Of a DNA stretch of 64,000 nucleotides, positions 1 through 44,246 are shown piece after piece. The position numbers and the translations under genes are program-made. Origin of the DNA: Planctomycetota bacterium (GTDB lineage Bacteria; Planctomycetota; Phycisphaerae; Phycisphaerales; UBA1924). The stretch spans positions 488,007 through 552,006 of the forward strand of contig JBCBHW010000002.1 of assembly GCA_038525225.1 (NCBI GenBank), read 5' to 3'. Below the pieces are notes generated by a model. The model did no database searches. It was not told the DNA's origin and worked only from the letters and a program-made list of their open reading frames with translations. Within the stretch, counting starts at the first letter, position 1; every line of letters starts with the position of its first letter.

Positions 1-288
1 ATTGCGATGTGGATGGCTGCGAACCTCTTTGAGGGGGGAAGCGCGACCTCGAGGCCGTTGTCAACGTGGCTCGTGCGATTCGGTCGCGGCGGCGCTGGGT
101 GGCAGGTGCTTCTGCTGGGTTTGGCGGTCGCGAGCGGCGGGATCGACCCGCGGTCGGCCGATGGCGCGGCGATGGTGTACGCGATCGCGGGCTCCGCGGT
201 CGTCGGCGAGCTGCTGCGGCCTGGTGCGTATCGCGCGATGCGGCGGTTCAGACAGGACCACGCGGGCTCGGGCGTCACTCCACGGTGA
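1..288 (+). CDS. 3' end of an upstream gene running off the window (hydrophobic, membrane-protein-like C-terminus); partial
   Basis: Frame 1 (ORF 7..288 extended to base 1) has the strong GC3 bias typical of real genes here. It has no stop until 286-288 and has hydrophobic stretches (WQVLLLGLAVASGG, VYAIAGSAVVGELL). It converges on the glmS 3' end with a 14-nt overlap. Confidence 0.3.
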   Translation: MAMWMAANLFEGGSATSRPLSTWLVRFGRGGAGWQVLLLGLAVASGGIDPRSADGAAMVYAIAGSAVVGELLRPGAYRAMRRFRQDHAGSGVTPR

Positions 289-2107
289 CTGACTTGGCGA
301 GGTTGCGGGGCTTGTCGACGTCGTGGCCGCGGGCGACGGCGGCCTCGTAGGCCATGAGTTGGAGCGGGATGACGGTGAGCAGCGGGCTGAGGGGCTCGGC
401 GATGTCGGGGACGTAGAGCACGTCTTCGGCGAGGTCGGCGATATCGGTGTCGCCCTCGGTGGCGACGGCGATGACGTGGCCGCCGCGGCTGCGGACCTCT
501 TCGATGTTGGCCAGGACCTTGCTGTACTGGGCGCCCTTGTTTGCGATGAAGACGGCGGGCATGCCTTCGGTGATAAGGGCGATCGGGCCGTGCTTCATCT
601 CGGCGGCGGGCATGCCCTCGGCGTGGATGTAGCTGATTTCCTTGAGCTTGAGGGCGCCCTCGAGCGCTGTGGGATAGTTGAAGCCCCGGCCCAGGAAGAG
701 CCAGTTCTCGCGATCGACGTACTTGTGGGTGACGCACTTGATGGTGTCGGAAGTGGCAAGGATCTGCTCGATCTTGTCGGGGACGCTTTCAAGCTCGTCG
801 AGCATGGCTCGGCACTCTTCGACAGACATGAGCCGGCGGCGGCCGAGAAAGATCGCCATCATCGTGAGCGCGGCGACCTGGCCCGTGAAGGCTTTCGTAC
901 TCGCAACGCCGATCTCGGGGCCGACGCGGAGGTAGACACCCGCGTCGGTCTCGCGGGAGATGGAGCTGCCCACGACGTTGACGATGCCCAGGGCGAGCGC
1001 GCCCTTATCCTTTGCTTCGGTAAGGGCGGCGAGCGTATCGGCGGTCTCGCCCGACTGGCTGATGGCGGCGACGACCGTGCCCTCTTCGACGATTGGGTTG
1101 CGGTAGCGGAACTCGCTGGCGTACTCGATCTCGGTCGGGACCTTGGCGAGGTTCTCGAACAGGTACTCGCCGATCATGGCCGCGTGGAGCGCGGTGCCCT
1201 GGCCGGTGAGGATGAACTTGCGGGCGCGGACGAGCTGCGAGGCGTGGCTGAGCAGACCGCCTAAGACAATCCTGCCCTCGTTCTTGTCGATGCGGCCCCG
1301 GAGGGTCATGCGGAGCGACTCGGGCTGCTCGAAGATCTCCTTGTGCATGTAGTGCGGGTGGCCGCCGAGCTCGATCTGGTCGAGGTCCATCTCCAGCTGC
1401 ATGAGCTTGGGGGTGACGGCCTCGTTGTCAATGGTGCTGGTCTGGATGCCGTCGCGGGTGAGCTTGCAGACGTTGTAGTCGTCGAGGGCGAAGGCCTGGG
1501 TGGTGTGTGCGACGATGGCGGACGCGTCGGACGCGACGACGTACTCGCCCGAGCCGACGCCGATGAGCAGGGGCGAGCCCTTGCGTGCGCAGACGAGCAC
1601 GTCGGGCTCCTTCTCGCACATGACGGCGATCGCGTAGGCGCCGGTGACTTCTTTGAGTGCGGCACGGACCGCGGCTTCGAGATCGCCCTCGTACAGCTCG
1701 CCTATGAGGACGGCGAGCACTTCGGTGTCGGTCTCGCTCTTGAAGGTGTGGCCCTTGTCTTTGAGCCAGGTGCGGAGTGCGGCGTAGTTCTCGATGATGC
1801 CGTTGTGGATGATGCAGATGCCCGTGGCGTCGTGGGTGTGCGGGTGGCAGTTGGCTTCGGTGACGCCGCCGTGGGTGGCCCAGCGGGTGTGGGCGATGCC
1901 GATGGAGGCGCGGAAGGTGTCGCCGGCGGCGTCGATCTTGGCCTCGACGTTGGCGACCCGGCCGACGGCTCGCTCGAGGATGATGCCCGCGTCGTTGAGC
2001 ACGGCGACACCGGCGGAGTCGTAGCCGCGGTACTCGAGCCGCTTGAGGCCCTCGATCAGGAGGTCGGCGGCGGGCTTGGTTCCGATGTAGGCGACGATGC
2101 CGCACAT
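275..2107 (-). CDS. glmS: glutamine--fructose-6-phosphate aminotransferase (isomerising)
   Basis: ORF 275..2356, trimmed to the conserved N-terminus MCGIVAYIG (catalytic Cys2). The cat at 2105-2107 is in frame. Length is 610 aa. Two SIS domains; ends ...KSVTVE. Confidence 0.9.
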   Translation of the reverse strand: MCGIVAYIGTKPAADLLIEGLKRLEYRGYDSAGVAVLNDAGIILERAVGRVANVEAKIDAAGDTFRASIGIAHTRWATHGGVTEANCHPHTHDATGICIIHNGIIENYAALRTWLKDKGHTFKSETDTEVLAVLIGELYEGDLEAAVRAALKEVTGAYAIAVMCEKEPDVLVCARKGSPLLIGVGSGEYVVASDASAIVAHTTQAFALDDYNVCKLTRDGIQTSTIDNEAVTPKLMQLEMDLDQIELGGHPHYMHKEIFEQPESLRMTLRGRIDKNEGRIVLGGLLSHASQLVRARKFILTGQGTALHAAMIGEYLFENLAKVPTEIEYASEFRYRNPIVEEGTVVAAISQSGETADTLAALTEAKDKGALALGIVNVVGSSISRETDAGVYLRVGPEIGVASTKAFTGQVAALTMMAIFLGRRRLMSVEECRAMLDELESVPDKIEQILATSDTIKCVTHKYVDRENWLFLGRGFNYPTALEGALKLKEISYIHAEGMPAAEMKHGPIALITEGMPAVFIANKGAQYSKVLANIEEVRSRGGHVIAVATEGDTDIADLAEDVLYVPDIAEPLSPLLTVIPLQLMAYEAAVARGHDVDKPRNLAKSVTVE

Positions 2108-36165: not shown

Positions 36166-38661
36166 GTGGCGAGGCGTCGAGGCTGGGTCTGGTCGATCGT
36201 TGTGTGCTTCTATCTCGTTGGGCTTGTGCTCACGAGCCATGCCAACACGGCATCGCGCAAGGGCAACCGCCAGCCGATGCAGACGTTCGTCGACGCTGGG
36301 CGCGCCGTGTGGCTGCCGCCCATGACGAGCGAGGGCCCCGTCGATGGACTCGAGCAGAGCGCGCGGCTCGGACAGTCCTTTCAATCGTGGGGCGACCAAC
36401 GCGGGATCGCACCGGTCATCCTGCTGCACGGATCTCCCGGTGGATACCAGAACTTCGTCGGCTCGCGGTCTCGCCCCGGACTCGGCGAACTCGTTGCCGA
36501 AGGCCGTCGATCGTTCGCGCTCGATCTGCCCGGCATGGGCCTGAGCCGCCGAGATCCGCCGACGTGGTCGGCGCGATCTCACGCGCATGCCGTGCTGGCG
36601 TTTATGGATGAAATGGGCGTAAAGCGTGCGCACATCGTCGGCTGGTCGAACGGCGGCGCAGTGGCGCTCAATATGGCGGATATCGACGCCGATCGGGTCG
36701 CATCGATTGTCATGCTCGGCTCGGTCGGAGCCCAGGAGACGGAAGGGTCGGGCAGCTACTGGTTCGAGCAAGCGAAATACGAGATTGGCATCGGCGCGAC
36801 GCACGTTGCAGAGCGACTGCTGCCGCACTTCGGCCTGCTCGATCTGCGTGATCTTCGGCGTGGGCTTCGCAACTTCGATGACACCGACCAGCGGCCGCTG
36901 GCGGGCATCATGCGCGAGCTTGCCACGCCCACGCTAATCCTGCACGGGCGGAATGACTTTCTGGTTGCTGACTGGGCGGCCGAGTATCACCACGAGCTGA
37001 TGCCGACCTCGACGCTCGTCATAACCGACGACGATCATTTCATGCCGTTCCTGGCGGCGGAAGAGACGGCCCAGCACATCGGCGCGTTCATCGAGCGGTT
37101 CGATGACCCGGCGGCGGTGGCCGAACGCGCGACCGTGGATCTCGCGCCGCGGGTCAAGCCGTTTGGTGATGCGGGCGATGCGGCGCTGCATTGGCTGCAC
37201 TTTGCGCCGGTGTTGCTGGTGCTTCCGCTGGTGACGCTGGTGGGCTGGGTGCGGCCCGGTCGTGCGTGGGTGGCCGTGTTGGTCGGCGCAACAGAGCTCG
37301 ACATCGGTGTCGCATGGCTTGGCCTCGCGGTCGGAGAGGGCGTGCGAGCTGTGCGGCATGGGCGCGGGCAGAAGGTCTCCGCCTGGCTTGGATTGCTCGT
37401 GCGGCCTCTTGCAGCGCTCGGGCTTGGGTTTGTGTTTGTGCAGCTTGTGGCGAGGCCCGTGATCCGGCTCGGCCCAGACTGGGCGCATGGCATTGGCTGG
37501 CTGCTCGCCGTCGCTGTGCTTGTGATAGTGATGCGCGCGCTGCCGGTGCTGGTGCGCAACATCTGGACGATGCGCGGTCGGCAGCGGTTGCGGGCTTCGG
37601 TCGCTCGTCTTCTGCACCACGAGTGGTGGCCAAGTTGGGCGTTGTACCTGCCGCTTGTGCCGTGGTTCGTTTGGCAAAGCGTGAAGCACCGGCACCCGCT
37701 CGTGTTCACCGCGTGCAACCCGGGGATCGCCAACGGCGGCGGGCTCGCGGGCGAGAGCAAGAGCGAGATCCTGGACGGCCTGCTCGCGTCGGGCGACCGG
37801 CGCGTGCTGTTCGGCGTGCGGCTGCCGAATGACGGAACGCCCGAAGAACGAACGGCATGGCTGATGCAGCAACTCGACGACGAGCCTCGGCTCGGCGGGC
37901 TGCCGATCGTGATGAAGCCCGACGCGGGCGAGCAGGGGCGAGGGATCAAGGTCTGCCGATCGCGCGAAGATATCGAACGATTGGTTGCGGATACATCCGG
38001 TCCGATTCTGGCGCAGCGGCTCAGTGATCGGCCGAACGAGGTCGGGGTGTTCTTTGTGTGCGACAGTGCGGCCGGGCGGGTGTTCTCCGTCACACGCAAG
38101 GTCTTTCCCGTGCTGACTGGCGACGGAAAGCGAACCCTCGAACAGCTTGTCTGGCGACACAAAAGATTCCGAGGCCAAGCCGAGACGTTTCTCGAGCGGT
38201 TTGCCGATCGGCGAGACGAGGTACTCGACGACGCTGAAGAACTCGTCCTGTCATGGGCGGGGAACCACCGGCAGGGCTGTCAGTTTCGGAATGCACCGGA
38301 GCTGATGACGCCGGGTCTTGAGCGGGCAATTTGTGAGATCGCCGATGGCTTCGCAGGGGTCAACGGCGGCGGGCTCGATTTCGGTCGCTTCGATCTGCGG
38401 TACGACCACGAGGACGCGCTCGCGGCGGGCGAGTTCGATGTGATCGAGGTCAACGGCACGTCGAGCGAGTCGACCACGATCTACGACCCGCGCAGATCGC
38501 CGTGGTTCGCCTGGCGGACGCTGATGCGGCAATGGTCGATCGCGTATGCGATCGGAGCACGCAACCGCGAAGCGGGGTACAAGCCGTTGTCGTTCGTTCA
38601 GGCGCTTCGGCTGGTGCGCGCGCATCTCCGCGAGCGCGAGTCGCTGGGCGCGAGCAGCTAG
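36166..38661 (+). CDS. tri-domain membrane protein: N-terminal signal/TM + alpha/beta-hydrolase, central polytopic membrane segment, C-terminal ATP-grasp ligase domain
   Basis: GTG start 1 nt after the rlmN stop. Residues ~60-300 carry the alpha/beta-hydrolase nucleophile elbow HIVGWSNGGAVA. Residues ~330-510 form several hydrophobic helices. Residues ~560-800 are ATP-grasp-like (LPIVMKPDAGEQGRGIKV ... FDVIEVNGTSSEST). Confidence 0.7.
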   Translation: MARRRGWVWSIVVCFYLVGLVLTSHANTASRKGNRQPMQTFVDAGRAVWLPPMTSEGPVDGLEQSARLGQSFQSWGDQRGIAPVILLHGSPGGYQNFVGSRSRPGLGELVAEGRRSFALDLPGMGLSRRDPPTWSARSHAHAVLAFMDEMGVKRAHIVGWSNGGAVALNMADIDADRVASIVMLGSVGAQETEGSGSYWFEQAKYEIGIGATHVAERLLPHFGLLDLRDLRRGLRNFDDTDQRPLAGIMRELATPTLILHGRNDFLVADWAAEYHHELMPTSTLVITDDDHFMPFLAAEETAQHIGAFIERFDDPAAVAERATVDLAPRVKPFGDAGDAALHWLHFAPVLLVLPLVTLVGWVRPGRAWVAVLVGATELDIGVAWLGLAVGEGVRAVRHGRGQKVSAWLGLLVRPLAALGLGFVFVQLVARPVIRLGPDWAHGIGWLLAVAVLVIVMRALPVLVRNIWTMRGRQRLRASVARLLHHEWWPSWALYLPLVPWFVWQSVKHRHPLVFTACNPGIANGGGLAGESKSEILDGLLASGDRRVLFGVRLPNDGTPEERTAWLMQQLDDEPRLGGLPIVMKPDAGEQGRGIKVCRSREDIERLVADTSGPILAQRLSDRPNEVGVFFVCDSAAGRVFSVTRKVFPVLTGDGKRTLEQLVWRHKRFRGQAETFLERFADRRDEVLDDAEELVLSWAGNHRQGCQFRNAPELMTPGLERAICEIADGFAGVNGGGLDFGRFDLRYDHEDALAAGEFDVIEVNGTSSESTTIYDPRRSPWFAWRTLMRQWSIAYAIGARNREAGYKPLSFVQALRLVRAHLRERESLGASS

Positions 38662-39686
38662 TCGCTTGGGGCTCCGAGGATACGGAGCTTGAGCTCGTCG
38701 CCGGCGATCGCGATGCGGGAGCCGTCGTCGCTCGCGGCGATCGCGCGGACCTTGCCCGCGTCGGCTTCGTACATGCTCGTTTCGGCGTGGCCTGCGATCG
38801 GGAGGACGGCAACGCGTCGGCCGCTGTCAGCGATAAGGACGCGGTCTTTGCCGCAGAGGCACGCGTGCGCGGGCTGGGCCGGGGCCTTAAAGCTGCCGAC
38901 GGTTGCGCGGCGTTCGGCGTCCCAGACGGTGAAGGTCTTTGACGCGTCGTAGGTGGCGATGCGGTTGGCGTCGAGCTGGATCATGCCGCGGATCGCCGAG
39001 CGCGTTGGGCGTTGGCTCGCGCCGGGTTTGTCGAGTGTCTCATCGAGCAGCAGCAGCTTGTTTGCCCCTGCGACGATGAGCGAGCCGGCGGCGAAGGCGA
39101 GCCGGGAGCGGTCGTCGGCTGGCACGCTCCATTTGCGGATAACCTCGCCCGTGAGCAGGTCGTACAGCGTGACGGTGTGATCGGCGGCGAGTGTGGCGAC
39201 GCGGCCCAGCGTGGCGTCGACGACGGCGTGCCGGATGGGTGACGCCGTCTCGCCGGCTTTGGTTGCCGCGGTGATCAGGCCGCCCAGCGGGACAACGACG
39301 GCGACCAGTTCCCTCGCGACCTTTACGGTATTGCCGACCGTCTTCACGAGACCCGTCGGTGACTGCGCCGACTCGAGCAGCGCCTGGACCGTGGTGAACC
39401 GGCCTGTTTCTTCGCTCGATTCGAGATCAACCAGCCGGGCGCTGCCGTCTTCGGCGGCGAACAGGACCCCCTGCTGGTCGGGCCAGAAGCACGCGTACCG
39501 AACGGCGGCGTTGTGGCGGTAGAGCGCGGCCTCGGCGGACTCTTCGCCGAAGACGGTCCAGACCGCGATCGCGCCGTCGCGCCCCGATGACAGCACGACG
39601 TCGTTGCGTCCCGGCGCGAACGCGACGCTCGTGATGCGGTCGCGGTGGCCCGAGAGCGTGGCGATGTCGTGCAGGTCGGTTGGCAT
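38658..39686 (-). CDS. WD40-repeat protein
   Basis: C-terminal part of ORF 38658..40529. Repeated ...SGHRDRITSVAFAP.../...VTLYDL.../...FTVWDA... blades. The start is uncertain (ATG at 39686, or ATG at 39785 which would overlap pdxH by 28 nt). Confidence 0.55.
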   Translation of the reverse strand: MPTDLHDIATLSGHRDRITSVAFAPGRNDVVLSSGRDGAIAVWTVFGEESAEAALYRHNAAVRYACFWPDQQGVLFAAEDGSARLVDLESSEETGRFTTVQALLESAQSPTGLVKTVGNTVKVARELVAVVVPLGGLITAATKAGETASPIRHAVVDATLGRVATLAADHTVTLYDLLTGEVIRKWSVPADDRSRLAFAAGSLIVAGANKLLLLDETLDKPGASQRPTRSAIRGMIQLDANRIATYDASKTFTVWDAERRATVGSFKAPAQPAHACLCGKDRVLIADSGRRVAVLPIAGHAETSMYEADAGKVRAIAASDDGSRIAIAGDELKLRILGAPSD

Positions 39687-39757
39687 GCGCTTGGAAACTC
39701 GCAGCGAGGCTCGGTCCTGATCGCGGTACTCGGGCACATCCGAGTCCGACTTCAGCG

Positions 39758-40507
39758 TCAAGGCTGAAGTCTCGTGCGGGCCCATGACCCGCCCGCGAAG
39801 CCGTCGCCCGCGGGTGTGAGTTCGCGGGTCCATTCCGCGCGGTCGTGGAACCGGCCCTTGCCGCCGATCCAGAGCTCGACGCGCTGGGCCCAGATCCGGA
39901 AGCCCCCCCAGTGCGGCGGGCGTGGGATGGTGATGCCGTCGCCCGGCTCTTCGCCGGCGACGACGCTCATGGGGACGCCGAAGCGGTCGAGCACATCGCT
40001 GTACTGTTCGAGGAGCTGCTCGCGCGTCTCGACGGGCCGGGACTGGTTGCTGGCCCACGCGCCGAGGCGTTTGAGGATGTGCCTGCTGTTGAAGTAGGCG
40101 TCGCTCTCCTCGGCCGGGCTCTGGGTCACGGGGCCCTCGATGCGGACTTGACGGTCGAGGGCGTCCCAGTGGAAGCAGGCCGCGGCGACAGGCTTGGCCC
40201 GGAGCTGGCTGCCCTTGCCGCCCTCGTAGTTCGTGTAGAACACGACCCTGCCGGTCTCGGAATCGGAGTCGGTCTGGTAGCTCTTGCAGAGCACGATTCG
40301 GCTGGACGGTGTGCCGTCGGCCTTGAGCGTGGCAACGTTCATGGCGTTGGGGTTGTCGGTGATCGGCCCGCCGTCCGGGCCGGCGGTGTGGGCGTCGGTC
40401 CACCACTGTTTGAAGATGTCCCACGGGTGTTCGGGGAGCGATTCGGGCAGGGTGCCGCCCTCGGCGAAGGGGTCGTCGGCGACGGTGATGGGCGTGCGTT
40501 CGGGCAT
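39758..40507 (-). CDS. pdxH: pyridoxamine 5'-phosphate oxidase
   Basis: RIVLCKSYQTDS...GRVVFYTNYEGGKGSQL and C-terminal WGGFRIW. Confidence 0.85.
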   Translation of the reverse strand: MPERTPITVADDPFAEGGTLPESLPEHPWDIFKQWWTDAHTAGPDGGPITDNPNAMNVATLKADGTPSSRIVLCKSYQTDSDSETGRVVFYTNYEGGKGSQLRAKPVAAACFHWDALDRQVRIEGPVTQSPAEESDAYFNSRHILKRLGAWASNQSRPVETREQLLEQYSDVLDRFGVPMSVVAGEEPGDGITIPRPPHWGGFRIWAQRVELWIGGKGRFHDRAEWTRELTPAGDGFAGGSWARTRLQP

Positions 40508-40668: not shown

Positions 40669-42441
40669 TTGGCCGACGATCACGGACGCGACCACGGAGG
40701 GGGAAACGGCAGGCCGGGCGGTTCCGGACGACGGGACCGCGCGGTTTTCACAAGCGTCGAACGGCTGTTCGACAAGCTGCCGCCGCACTCGCTCGAAGCG
40801 GAGATGAGCCTGCTCGGATCGATGATCCTCGACCCGCAGGTCATCGCGGACGTGTTGCCCGTGGTCGGCTCGCCGGAGTCGTTCTACTCGTCCGGGCACG
40901 CCGCGATCTACAAGGGCATCCTCCAGCTGTACGACCAGCACCAGGCGGGCGATCTGGTCATGCTCGTCGATGTGCTGCGCAACGCGGGGCAGCTGGATGA
41001 CATCGGGGGCGAGCAGTACCTGGTCGACCTGGCCGAGGGCGTGCCCGCGCCGACGAGCGCCGTGTACTACGCGCGCACGGTTGCTGACAAGCACCGGCTG
41101 CGGTCGCTGATTGAGGCGTCGGGCAAGATCCTGTACGAGGCGTACCACCCGGGCGAGGGCGCACAGGCGGTCAACGAGGTCATCGACGCGGCCGAGAGCA
41201 AGATCTTCGCGATCGCAGAGCAGTCGCAGAGTGATGAGGCCCAGTCGCTCGAAGAGCTGCTGCAAGAAGAGATCGAGCACCTCGAAGCCATCGAGGGCAA
41301 GGGCGTCAGCGGCATCCCGACTGGCTACCTTGAGCTTGACGACATGCTGACCGGCCTGCACGCGGGCGAGATGATCATCGTCGCGGCCCGGCCTTCGATG
41401 GGCAAGACAGCGCTCGCGCTCAACATCGCCGAGCAGGTGGCGATGGGCGGCGCTTCGCTCGGCAACAAGCCCAAGGCGGACAAGTGCGCGGTTGCCTTGT
41501 TCAGCGTCGAGATGAGCAAGAGCGCGGTGACGAGCCGGATGCTCAGCGCGCGGTCGGGCGTGGACAGCCACAAGATGCGTTCGGGCCGGTTCACGCAGGA
41601 CGACTTCCAGCGGCTCATCCGCGCGTCGGGCGACCTGGCAGAGGCGCCGATCTACATCGACGACACGCCGAGCCTGTCGATCCTCGGGTTGCGGGCGCGG
41701 TCGCGTCGGCTCGCACGGAAGCACAACATCGGCTGCATCGTGATCGACTACCTGCAGCTTCTGTCATCGCCCGGCGCAGCGCGCGAGTCGCGGCAGGTCG
41801 AGGTCAGCGAGATCAGCCGGGGCATCAAAGCGCTCGCGCGTGAGCTCGATGTGCCGGTGATCTGTCTCGCGCAGCTCAATCGAGGCCCGGAGCAGCGTGA
41901 GGGCAAGCAGCCCCGGATCAGCGATCTGAGGGAATCGGGCTCGATCGAGCAGGACGCGGATGTCGTCTTGCTGCTGCACCGCGAGGAGTACTACCACATC
42001 GGCGACGAGGACTGGCAGATGGACAACCCTGACAAGCTGGGGCTGGCCGAGCTGATCGTCGCGAAGCAACGGAACGGGCCGACGGGCGTGGTGAAGCTGA
42101 CGTGGGACAGCCAGACGACGCGGTTCAAGAACCACGCGGAGTCTTCGGGCGGCGGCTACGGCGTGGGCGCGGGCTACGGCGGCGGACACAGCTCTGGTCA
42201 CAGCTCTGGACATGGCGCGGGCGTCGGCTACGGAGGCTCGAACGGTGCGTCGTACAGCGAGCCGAAGCCCAGGACCGAGCCGACCAGCGAAACGGCAACG
42301 CATGGCACCCCGCCCGACCAGAGCTTCGGCGGCTTCGGCAATCGGCCCAAGACGGGACCCGCCGAGGACCACCGCGACGGCGGAGGGCCGACCGAGTTCG
42401 ACGGCGATGAGTTCGACGGCGACGAGGTTGCGCCGTTCTGA
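40669..42441 (+). CDS. dnaB: replicative DNA helicase with a ~100-aa Gly/Tyr/Ser-rich disordered C-terminal extension ending in an acidic ...DEVAPF tip
   Basis: TTG start with GGAGG 8 nt upstream. Walker A is GEMIIVAARPSMGKTA. Helicase motif ELDVPVICLAQLNRGPEQR. Confidence 0.85.
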   Translation: MADDHGRDHGGGNGRPGGSGRRDRAVFTSVERLFDKLPPHSLEAEMSLLGSMILDPQVIADVLPVVGSPESFYSSGHAAIYKGILQLYDQHQAGDLVMLVDVLRNAGQLDDIGGEQYLVDLAEGVPAPTSAVYYARTVADKHRLRSLIEASGKILYEAYHPGEGAQAVNEVIDAAESKIFAIAEQSQSDEAQSLEELLQEEIEHLEAIEGKGVSGIPTGYLELDDMLTGLHAGEMIIVAARPSMGKTALALNIAEQVAMGGASLGNKPKADKCAVALFSVEMSKSAVTSRMLSARSGVDSHKMRSGRFTQDDFQRLIRASGDLAEAPIYIDDTPSLSILGLRARSRRLARKHNIGCIVIDYLQLLSSPGAARESRQVEVSEISRGIKALARELDVPVICLAQLNRGPEQREGKQPRISDLRESGSIEQDADVVLLLHREEYYHIGDEDWQMDNPDKLGLAELIVAKQRNGPTGVVKLTWDSQTTRFKNHAESSGGGYGVGAGYGGGHSSGHSSGHGAGVGYGGSNGASYSEPKPRTEPTSETATHGTPPDQSFGGFGNRPKTGPAEDHRDGGGPTEFDGDEFDGDEVAPF

Positions 42442-42453
42442 CGCGGACCCGAT

Positions 42454-43347
42454 CTAGCCGCTGAGGCGCTCGACCATGCCCATCGCGGCCTCAGGCCCGG
42501 GCATCGCGGCGAGGTCGAGCGGCAGGCACACGCCGAACTCGTGGTCGCTGTTGAGAATCACCGCGTTGGGCGGCACGAACGCGCTCCCGAACTCGGCGTG
42601 CTCGTGTCCCAGGATGAACCAGTTGACCCCCCACCGCTCGACAAGGTCCTCGAGCAGCTCGGCGTCGTAGCCCCGGCCCCAGACCATCAGGTGCGCCGAG
42701 CCCTGACGGGGCGTGTAGTCGTCGTCGGTCAGATCGCGCGAGAGCACACCGGGGTCGAACCGCTGCATCATCGCGGGGTTGGGCAGGCTGTGGCTGCACA
42801 GGGCATCGAAGCCGCCGCCGGCGGGGTTCGCGCAGTGGCAGCGCAGGGCCAGCGGCATCGAGCGCACGAAGTCGTCGATCGCGGCTTCGACCCGGGGTGC
42901 CTCGCCGCCGAACGCGTAGTCGAGGCCCAGCTCGAAGGCCTCGACGCACTTGATGCCGTCCTTGAGCACCGGGCTCTTGAGCATCTGCGCGAGCTCGTGG
43001 TTGGCGAGCAGCGTGTGCACGTGGTCGGGGTACTCCGACTTGAGGTGCGCGACCTTGGCCATGACGCGGTAGCTGAAGTCCATGCCGTTCATCAGCCGGT
43101 CGGAGTGGATGATCTCGTGCAGCGTCAGGTGCTTGCGGTCGGCGTCGGCGTGCTCGGGGGTCAGGCCGGCACGCTCGATCAGCGTCTGGAAGTGCATCGG
43201 GTTGTCGTGCAGGTCGCCCGTTGCGATGAGCCGGCCCGGCGGGCGGATCTCGTCGATCGATCCGTTGCGGCAGTCAGCATCGCGGTTGGCCTGTGCGCCG
43301 CGGGTGAGGGCGTCGATCACGGCGTCTGCGTTGGCGAGATCGAGCAT
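42454..43347 (-). CDS. calcineurin-like metallophosphoesterase (PPP-type Ser/Thr phosphatase-like)
   Basis: ORF trimmed to MLDLANADAV. Motifs GDLHDN, LANHE (GNHE-like) and ILGHEH. Confidence 0.7.
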   Translation of the reverse strand: MLDLANADAVIDALTRGAQANRDADCRNGSIDEIRPPGRLIATGDLHDNPMHFQTLIERAGLTPEHADADRKHLTLHEIIHSDRLMNGMDFSYRVMAKVAHLKSEYPDHVHTLLANHELAQMLKSPVLKDGIKCVEAFELGLDYAFGGEAPRVEAAIDDFVRSMPLALRCHCANPAGGGFDALCSHSLPNPAMMQRFDPGVLSRDLTDDDYTPRQGSAHLMVWGRGYDAELLEDLVERWGVNWFILGHEHAEFGSAFVPPNAVILNSDHEFGVCLPLDLAAMPGPEAAMGMVERLSG

Positions 43348-43364
43348 CGATGGGCTCGCGTCGG

Positions 43365-44246
43365 TCAGGCTCTGGACGCGCGGTGCTCGCCGCTGCGGTC
43401 CTTGACGCCGGCTTTGAGCATCGCGTGGATGAGCGCGAGCTGGTTCACGACCGCAGGCATTTCGGGGCGGTCTTCCGGCGCGACCTCGAGGCACTGCATG
43501 ATCAGATCGTTCAGCTTGCCGGGGATGCGCCGGTTGAGATCGATCGCCGGGATCGGCGGCTCGAGCAGCGTGTCATCGATCGAGCCCATGAGCGAGCCGT
43601 CGGGCGCGAGCGCGGTCTTGACCTTCTCGCGTGTGAGCACGAAGTAGATGCTCGCGCCGAGGTTGTACACGTCGGTCTTGGGCGTGATCTGCCGGCGGTG
43701 CACCTGCTCCGGAGCGATGTAGTCCGGCGTGCCCTGGATGCGCTTCTTGATCGTGCCGACGGCGCACGACTGGCCCAGGTCGATGATCTTGGCGGTCCCC
43801 TTGTCGTCAACAATAACGTTGTTGGGCTTGAAGTCGGCGTGGACGAAGCCCCGCTCGTGCATGTGGGCCATCGCGCTGGCGGCCTGCCGGAAGATGTCGC
43901 ACGCCGACTCGAACGTCTTGGGCATCAGCTTGTCGAGCGCCTGGCCGTCCACGTGCTCCATGAATAAGAACAAACGCGTGGTGTGGCGGAGGCCCTTCTT
44001 CTTCTTGACCAACCGTTCGATCTTGCGGATGGTCGGGTGGTCGAGCTTCTGGGCGATCTGGTACTCGGCCTCGGCCTGGTCCATGAAGCGGACTGACTTC
44101 TCGTCGGTCCGCTGGACGTCTTTGAGCGCCCAGACGCGCTTTGTCTTCTGGTCGTGGGCGAGATAGATGATCGACGCCGCCCCGCGTCCCAGCTCGGCCA
44201 GGATACGGCAGCCCTCAACCTCATCGCCCTTGATGAAGACTTCCAA
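43365..44246 (-). CDS. Hanks-type serine/threonine protein kinase (short, no sensor domain)
   Basis: Glycine loop LGRGAASIIYLA and VAIK-like WALKD. Catalytic loop is HADFKPNN. DLG and APE motifs present. TTG start inferred. Confidence 0.75.
   Translation of the reverse strand: MEVFIKGDEVEGCRILAELGRGAASIIYLAHDQKTKRVWALKDVQRTDEKSVRFMDQAEAEYQIAQKLDHPTIRKIERLVKKKKGLRHTTRLFLFMEHVDGQALDKLMPKTFESACDIFRQAASAMAHMHERGFVHADFKPNNVIVDDKGTAKIIDLGQSCAVGTIKKRIQGTPDYIAPEQVHRRQITPKTDVYNLGASIYFVLTREKVKTALAPDGSLMGSIDDTLLEPPIPAIDLNRRIPGKLNDLIMQCLEVAPEDRPEMPAVVNQLALIHAMLKAGVKDRSGEHRASRA

Follow-up and report, generated by a model that had tools for sequence, protein, structure and literature searches.

To our knowledge, the architecture of the bacterial replisome is understood almost wholly from Escherichia coli and Bacillus, in which the replicative helicase DnaB stops directly behind its ATPase domain and partner proteins come via tau, DnaG and SSB (the protein that binds single-stranded DNA). 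We have analyzed a dnaB gene of a member of the Planctomycetota (class Phycisphaerae) and the long C-terminal tail of the protein that it encodes. The gene lies in a stretch of 64,000 nucleotides (contig JBCBHW010000002.1, positions 488,007 to 552,006), the whole of which is referred to below as the window. The dnaB open reading frame (ORF) extends over positions 40669..42441 of the window (+ strand) and codes for the chromosomal replicative helicase of 590 amino acids (aa), followed by a TGA stop codon at 42439-42441. The protein matches the NCBIfam equivalog model TIGR00665 (DnaB) with 499.8 bits against a cut-off of 385.25, residues 37-490 being aligned to positions 1-434 of the 435 in the profile. 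Both DnaB domains are present, viz. the N-terminal helical domain (aa 38-140; 40780..41088, + strand; Pfam PF00772, E = 7.4e-26), which is modelled by AlphaFold2 (AF2) with a predicted local distance difference test score (pLDDT) above 90, and the C-terminal RecA-like ATPase domain (aa 215-488; 41311..42132, + strand; Pfam PF03796, E = 5.8e-102, full profile 1-255), in which the Walker A P-loop, R241-P-S-M-G-K-T247, is invariant or nearly so in an alignment of 100 sequences. The protein is 100% identical to the NCBI entry MEM9662934.1, annotated as 'replicative DNA helicase [Planctomycetota bacterium]', and the window also encodes a number of housekeeping genes (viz. a glmS-like gene, carB, and the genes for GlnRS, GluRS and EF-G); hence, on the evidence of these sequences, it is a chromosomal DnaB and not a phage or plasmid copy.

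The DnaB core ends in TRFKNHAE491, the Pfam DnaB_C match stopping at residue 488 and the TIGR00665 match at residue 490, and it is followed by an in-frame tail of 99 residues, S492-F590, which reads SSGGGYGVGAGYGGGHSSGHSSGHGAGVGYGGSNGASYSEPKPRTEPTSETATHGTPPDQSFGGFGNRPKTGPAEDHRDGGGPTEFDGDEFDGDEVAPF and closes …TEFDGDEFDGDEVAPF. An extension of about 100 residues after the core, placed from 42139 (the codon of E491) onwards, had been proposed in the original prediction, and its presence and length are borne out by the reading frame, which runs without interruption to the TGA codon. No in-frame stop codon is found near …RFKNHAE in the dnaB frame of the window DNA, and the GC content at third codon positions, 0.89 for the core, is 0.82 for the tail. 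Six genome assemblies of relatives (L001-L006; 75-97% identity) likewise have the tail in frame through to the same C-terminal peptide, and the differences in tail length among these assemblies are multiples of three that represent in-frame indels in the linker. The tail has been seen in approximately 190 more orthologs from NCBI, ENA, JGI and Logan assemblies. The best 120 database homologs are all DnaBs of Phycisphaerae or Planctomycetota. A few of the entries are truncated; the others have lengths of 520-640 residues, so that nearly all of the homologs carry a tail. Over the 20 codons of the conserved motif described below, the window differs from L001-L006 by 5-10 synonymous and 1-4 nonsynonymous changes (10 and 1, respectively, for L003), and the motif codons are, as judged from these comparisons, under purifying selection. 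The conservation of the tail is well beyond chance by the same comparisons, and they indicate that the tail is a genuine, selectively maintained C-terminal extension of DnaB that is common to the class Phycisphaerae.

The anatomy of the tail was compared in 197 DnaBs of the Phycisphaerae type that have a complete C-terminus, which were pooled from two homolog searches and come from independent assemblies; tail lengths, linker composition and the counts of minor motifs are from the first ortholog set (n = 116, with composition pooled over 114 sequences). At least one of two tail motifs, viz. the RDGG motif and the P-X tip, is present in 192 of the 197 orthologs: the motif and the tip occur together in 159, the tip alone in 13, the motif alone in 20, and neither of them in 5. 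The tail is thus conserved and not specific to one strain, which were the two outcomes between which an ortholog alignment had been expected to decide. The best-conserved element of the tail is, in these alignments, not the tip but an upstream HRDGGGP motif. The linker, the acidic segment and the tip were all seen in the original prediction, but this most constrained element was missed. In the window it is the short linear motif FGNRPKTGPAEDHRDGGGPT (aa 556-575; 42334..42393, + strand), recognized in the ortholog alignments, where its consensus is F-[AGS]-[PGN]-[GR]-x-[KR]-[TS]-G-P-[VIA]-x-x-[HF]-R-D-G-G-G-P-[DET], and the form of the window type is F-x-P-G-x-K-T-G-P-x3-H-R-D-G-G-G-P. The RDGG sequence is found in 179 of the 197 orthologs, and among these F occurs at position -13 in 91%, G-P at -6/-5 in 96%, and P at +5 in 87%. 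Residues G563, P564, R569, D570, G571 and G572 are invariant in two alignments, on a par with the residues of Walker A, and P589 in the tip is also invariant in the 100-sequence alignment.

The motif is followed by the acidic C-terminal segment EFDGDEFDGDEVAPF (aa 576-590; 42394..42438, + strand), which ends in the hexapeptide DEVAPF (42421-42438). The median net charge of this segment is -5 in the 116 orthologs of the first set. An end of the form P[FIVLYM] is present in 172 of the 197 orthologs; Pro occupies position -2 in 100% of these, the last residue is F in 53%, I in 28% and V in 12%, position -3 is L in 35%, A in 28%, P in 15% and I in 10%, and there is a mean of 4.5 acidic and 0.15 basic residues among the last 12. 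In 41 of the 116 tails a further [AP]PF lies internally, and dnaB is the sole ORF in the window with an acidic Pro-X end. One subclade (P0065, P0087, P0089, P0099, P0105 and P0113) has RDGGGSD (RDGGGGD in P0099) in place of RDGGGPD, and its members end …RPEVEEDEGL or similar; from these sequences, the tip may have been relocated or lost in this subclade along with the substitution at position +5 of the motif. Within the acidic segment of the window, a 15-bp tandem duplication (x2.3; 42393-42426, + strand; Tandem Repeats Finder) codes for EFDGD-EFDGD. This doubling of an acidic/aromatic unit before the tip is common to the window, L001, L003 and P0002 and is lineage-specific.

The region between the core and the motif is a variable, disordered linker that is rich in Gly, Ser, Tyr, His and Pro (aa 492-555; 42142..42333, + strand), with AF2 pLDDT values below 50 at residues 495-554. 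The linker has no conserved sequence or length among the orthologs, its pooled composition being G 20%, P 14%, A 14%, S 9% and Y 4.4%, and the whole tail varies from 51 to 158 residues (median 88; 116 orthologs). The Gly/Tyr/Ser/His repeats, to which the original prediction gave weight, are lineage-specific, as repeats of the GYG and HSSG types are confined to the closest relatives of the window. One of these is a 12-bp tandem repeat, CACAGCTCTGGT (x1.9; 42187..42209, + strand; Tandem Repeats Finder), that codes for HSSG-HSSG; the window has two units of the repeat and the 97%-identical L001 has three (HSTG, HSSG, HSSG), a change in copy number which, at the sequence level, is ongoing in-frame slippage in the linker. 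The linker also holds an E-P-K-P mini-motif (aa 531-534; 42259..42270, + strand) that is seen in L001-L004 as well; E[PA]KP is found in 35 of the 116 tails and a looser form of it in 50 of the 116, often with Tyr, Phe or Val ahead. Selection, as it can be read from these alignments, acts on the two motifs and not on the linker.

The predicted structure of the tail is disordered, as had been proposed. In the AF2 model of the window DnaB (based on a 100-sequence alignment), the core has pLDDT values above 90, residues 495-554 are below 50, and the motif and the tip reach about 50-57, with no secondary structure in the tail. In the model of a short-linker ortholog of 522 residues, the values are below 50 at residues 479-499 and 55-61 at residues 500-522, again with no secondary structure. 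In these models, the pLDDT pattern of the tail is the signature of short linear motifs and not of a folded domain. No known family was matched by the tail in searches of Pfam, which gave nothing, and NCBIfam, which gave one meaningless 7-bit match to a serine-rich protein. A HMMER search of 1.84 billion representative proteins with the last 40 residues recovered just two DnaB fragments and spurious repeat proteins, the power of this single short query being too low to prove absence elsewhere.

The motif itself is, within the sampling done and in terms of sequence matches, specific to DnaB. A scan of viral contigs with the DNA pattern for G-P-x3-H-R-D-G-G-G-P gave only 3 off-frame chance matches. 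The corresponding scan of metagenomes gave at least 120 loci, and among the matches listed approximately 53 are real, all of them DnaB tails, and approximately 66 are off-frame matches in GC-rich DNA. Two unusual sequences were observed in the course of this work. The first, at positions 1-354 (+ strand) of locus L039, is on a 2.7-kb microbial-mat contig of 4x coverage, where a single ORF fuses a truncated thiamine-dependent 2-oxoacid dehydrogenase E1-alpha (…NIVNNQWAISSFQGIAGGEEAPF) with the final ~40 residues of a DnaB tail (…YAPGKKTGPISNHRDGGGPDLADEFGLD). From its sequence it is probably an assembly chimera; if the fusion were real, it would be the only carrier of the motif among the matches listed that is not a DnaB. 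The second, P0123 (204 aa) from the representative-protein set, has an Hsp20/alpha-crystallin-like start followed by the C-terminal strands of DnaB and the tail, and probably reflects either a chimeric contig or an error of gene calling.

The structurally characterized DnaBs (viz. those of T. aquaticus, Geobacillus, V. cholerae, E. coli, A. aeolicus, H. pylori and M. tuberculosis) share with the window protein the N-terminal domain, the linker helix and the RecA-like domain. Solved DnaB chains align to the query just as far as residues 460-490, with E-values down to 8.9e-115; the full-length chains, which align as far as residues 488-490, end ~3-14 residues later and none of them has a tail of ~100 residues. 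Within its family the window DnaB is an ordinary member, but its appendage, which is found across the clade, is unusual. The normal coupling of cellular DnaB to Pol III is by way of the tau subunit.

The closest comparison for a helicase with such an appendage is provided by the gp4 protein of phage T7, which ends EEESHSESTDWSNDTDF (PDB 6n7i_A residues 550-566). The acidic tail of gp4 binds to basic patches on the polymerase gp5, and when 17 residues are deleted, processivity, otherwise 17 kb, falls to ~5 kb (PMC12593628). Both the helicase and the gp2.5 SSB are bound, via their acidic C-termini, by the thioredoxin-binding domain of gp5 (PMC1616965), and the gp4 tail serves both to tether and to exchange polymerases (PMC12593628, PMC1616965, PMC7231222). 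The tail region of gp4 is reported to be partly conserved in the mitochondrial helicase Twinkle (PMC7231222), in which the C-terminal tail controls ATPase activity and slows unwinding (PMC12214949). Like the protein studied here, gp4 is a hexameric helicase of the DnaB family in which an acidic tail with a terminal hydrophobic residue and, in many cases, an aromatic residue further upstream comes right after the RecA-like domain. As in gp4, many Phycisphaerae tips (…DWEDEDIDDLPI, …DWDDANDDGLPM) have a Trp ahead of the acidic residues and a hydrophobic residue at the very end, and the window tip, …EFDGDEVAPF, is also comparable to an end of this type. However, the gp4 tail is 17 residues long and lacks a long spacer, a Pro at -2 and any motif of the HRDGGGP type, and it belongs to a phage enzyme that works with a single-subunit polymerase, whereas the tail described here is on a cellular DnaB. 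No homology between the two tails is detectable, the HMMER search with the last 40 residues having given nothing but DnaB fragments of Phycisphaerae and the spurious repeat proteins. The view in the original prediction that such a tail is undescribed for DnaB therefore holds in part: the literature that was searched contains no case of a tail on a cellular DnaB, nothing of this kind for the DnaB of Planctomycetes and no mention of 'RDGGGP' in such a context, but the helicase tail of T7 gp4 is known. Acidic helicase tails and SSB-type tips are known already, and what is new is their variant on a cellular DnaB, in which a long tail bears an SSB-type tip together with a new invariant motif.

The second comparison is with the C-terminal tail of SSB (SSB-Ct), the binding of which requires a free C-terminus. 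The SSB motif DDDIPF is reported to be highly conserved and to engage many partners (PMC5872125). Other SSBs end somewhat differently, e.g. that of M. tuberculosis in GGGDDEPPF (PDB 1ue1_A) and that of M. leprae in GDEEPPF (PDB 3afp_A), and 12 of the orthologs end in D[DE]EPPF, which is identical to the tips of these mycobacterial proteins. Further, P0077 ends in DDVDDLPF, and 28 orthologs end in [DE][DE][IL]P[IV]. The DnaB tail is built like the SSB tail, with a Gly/Pro-rich linker that is disordered, then an acidic run, and Pro-Phe as the very last residues, and the likeness to an SSB tip that had been noticed in the window sequence is confirmed to this extent by the predicted disorder and the mycobacterial hexapeptide. 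At the level of the peptide, the sequence resemblance between the tips is real. The differences are that the DnaB tail is borne by a helicase and SSB-Ct by an OB-fold tetramer, that DnaB tips often end in Ile or Val, the window tip being DEVAPF and not DDD[IL]PF, that the DnaB tail has an extra invariant motif upstream, and that in some lineages PPF is internal and not terminal. Thus the window tail has the acidic run and the hydrophobic-Pro-Phe at the C-terminus which characterize SSB-Ct, but the near-invariant terminal Phe of SSB-Ct is not found across the orthologs. No SSB or OB domain is found in the dnaB ORF or elsewhere in the window, a tblastn search with E. coli SSB gave no match in the window and 130 loci, and no ssb gene lies within ±10 kb of dnaB in 4 large contigs (476 kb-3.9 Mb class).

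By analogy with the T7 gp4 tail, which docks the T7 polymerase, and the SSB tip, which docks the clients of SSB, the reading that we favour, with about an even chance of being correct, is that the tail serves as a flexible, multivalent tether by which DnaB would be joined to at least one partner from the replisome or from fork processing. The RecA-domain face of DnaB-family helicases looks to the fork and the leading-strand polymerase, and a DnaB hexamer would show six tails from this C-terminal face. In each of these, a variable, slippage-prone spacer of ~30-100 residues would be followed by the invariant motif, an acidic stretch (net charge ~-5), and an end of the form hydrophobic-Pro-(Phe/Ile/Val). 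The spacer would set the reach of the tail, and the putative docking peptides for the fork partner(s), presumably acting on that same face of the ring, are HRDGGGP and the acidic end in Pro-Phe. In E. coli, SSB-Ct is bound by chi, DnaG, PriA and RecQ-type helicases. By analogy, candidate partners of the DnaB tail are SSB-Ct-binding proteins or, as in T7, the leading-strand polymerase. A more specific proposal, in which HRDGGGP would be a new kind of replisome docking peptide and the SSB-Ct-type tip would give a direct, T7-style link from the helicase to the polymerase, the primase or a restart protein, is put forward tentatively, as a possibility that is more likely to be wrong than right; such a helicase-borne link, if true, would either add to the tau-DnaB and SSB-chi links known from E. 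coli or take their place.

A whole class of the Planctomycetota keeps a motif-bearing, disordered DnaB tail, parts of which are as invariant as an active site. In sequence terms, this points to an unrecognised, lineage-specific replisome contact and hints at wiring that is unlike the E. coli model, and the tail would be a cellular counterpart to that of T7 gp4. Both of the tail peptides are short and sharply defined, and thus the tether hypothesis is cheap to test; the finding leaves long-standing open questions untouched, and the mechanism is one that we infer. A number of observations weigh against a tether. The two AF2 monomer models, one with a long and one with a short linker, show tail pLDDT values of at most 61 and speak neither for nor against a docking of the tail back onto DnaB itself. 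The terminal residue varies (F, I or V), and the RDGGGSD subclade has no terminal Pro-Phe, several of its members having PPPF upstream instead; because of this, a free C-terminus would in some cases be dispensable for the tip, which is not so for SSB-Ct. The HRDGGGP motif has no counterpart in T7 gp4 or SSB, and the analogy with these systems therefore covers only a part of the tail. Lastly, the neighbours of dnaB (viz. pdxH and genes for a WD40 protein, a phosphoesterase and a kinase) are unrelated to replication and give no functional hint.

The same features could alternatively belong to an autoregulatory tail, of which the acidic end, and possibly HRDGGGP, would fold back in cis or onto a neighbouring subunit, where it would fill the basic DNA channel or modulate the ATPase, as in Twinkle, acting as an electrostatic gate on loading or on the rate of unwinding which a partner or DNA would open. 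The net charge of ~-5 directly after the RecA-like domain is in keeping with this, as is the competition of the acidic tails of SSB-type proteins with single-stranded DNA for the DNA-binding cleft, and the slight rise in pLDDT over the motif (50-61, compared with less than 50 in the linker) would fit a weak self-contact in the models. However, no confident docking is predicted by AF2, the long and variable spacer (whole tails of 51-158 aa) is better suited to outreach to partners than to a precise latch, and the fact that Pro at -2 and G-P…R-D-G-G-G-P are conserved exactly suggests a specific peptide pocket rather than generic charge. We consider autoregulation of this kind to be unlikely, but it is the strongest of the alternatives to the tether.

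A narrower version of the tether idea is strict mimicry of the SSB tip, in which the DnaB tip would bind to the same pockets as the cognate SSB-Ct, e.g. those of chi, DnaG, PriA, RecQ or ExoI, and would compete for, or share, the SSB interactome. The acidic Pro-Phe tip at the extreme C-terminus, and especially the D[DE]EPPF, DDVDDLPF and [DE][DE][IL]P[IV] ends described above, are in its favour, and so are the reported high conservation and many partners of DDDIPF (PMC5872125) and the fact that in T7 the helicase tail and the SSB tail share a binding site (PMC1616965). However, only 53% of the tips are Phe-terminal and position -3 varies (L, A, P or I), which is looser than a hub peptide with many clients should allow, the window tip is itself DEVAPF, and 25 of the 197 orthologs have no such end. 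As the terminal residue varies and one subclade has no terminal tip at all, as opposed to DDDIPF, which is reported to be highly conserved (PMC5872125), strict hub-peptide mimicry fits poorly. It also leaves the more conserved HRDGGGP motif unexplained, and we regard it as improbable.

The suggestion that a Gly/Tyr/Ser-rich linker drives phase separation and the formation of replisome condensates, which was made on account of the GYG-like and HSSG repeats in the window linker, has very little probability and finds no comparative support, since these repeats are limited to the closest relatives, whereas the linker is across the 116 orthologs G/P/A/S-rich with 4.4% Tyr and no conserved sequence and does not show the selected aromatic and Gly/Ser composition of prion-like low-complexity domains. 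An artefact, i.e. a sequencing frameshift or a read-through past the true stop, which the original prediction had kept in view, has practically no probability and is ruled out by the comparative data. No support for one was found, and the close relatives are metagenome-assembled genomes, which are in principle open to such errors, but the same frame and C-terminal motifs recur in ~190 orthologs of independent assemblies, indels keep the frame, synonymous changes in the motif are far above nonsynonymous ones, and no stop follows …KNHAE.

Two other possible roles of the tail were also considered. Replacement of a helicase loader is unlikely, since Phycisphaerae have DciA homologs (bioRxiv 10.1101/2022.01.24.477630), and a beta-clamp-binding or PIP-like motif was rejected as the tip has, by eye, no conserved Gln.

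Upstream of dnaB (40669, + strand), the window contains the divergent gene pdxH (pyridoxamine-5'-phosphate oxidase; 39758-40507, - strand). The divergent pdxH-dnaB pair is kept in 4 of 5 arrangements, i.e. in the window and in 3 of the 4 other large contigs (L007, L131 and L132, but not L133), and this pairing reaches orthologs of ~56% identity. In many bacteria dnaB lies beside rplI or ssb; in the window and the large contigs inspected it adjoins neither of these genes. A gene for a WD40 beta-propeller protein (38658-39740, - strand) adjoins pdxH, and its true start is probably near 39740, as the listed WD40 ORF of 623 aa runs upstream over pdxH as an Arg-rich stretch that looks non-coding. 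On the other side, a convergent gene ends at 42454, 13 bp past dnaB, and thus the dnaB tail overlaps no other gene. This gene codes for a calcineurin-like metallophosphoesterase (42454-43494, - strand) and is accompanied by one for a Ser/Thr protein kinase (43365-44246, - strand), also convergent with dnaB; the longest ORFs of the two overlap by ~130 nucleotides. The phosphoesterase and kinase genes are not downstream of dnaB in L007 and L131-L133, and they have no evident conserved link to the Ser/Thr/Tyr-rich tail.

Apart from the tail, the window DnaB has a variable segment of ~12 residues, GGASLGNKPKADKC, in its RecA-like domain (41440-41490, ~aa 258-275). This segment, which separates the helix that follows Walker A from the next strand, is unconserved in the alignment ('AxGGxxxxxxxxxxxxPVAxFSLEMS'). 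On the basis of its sequence, it may represent a clade-specific insertion in comparison with the model DnaBs.

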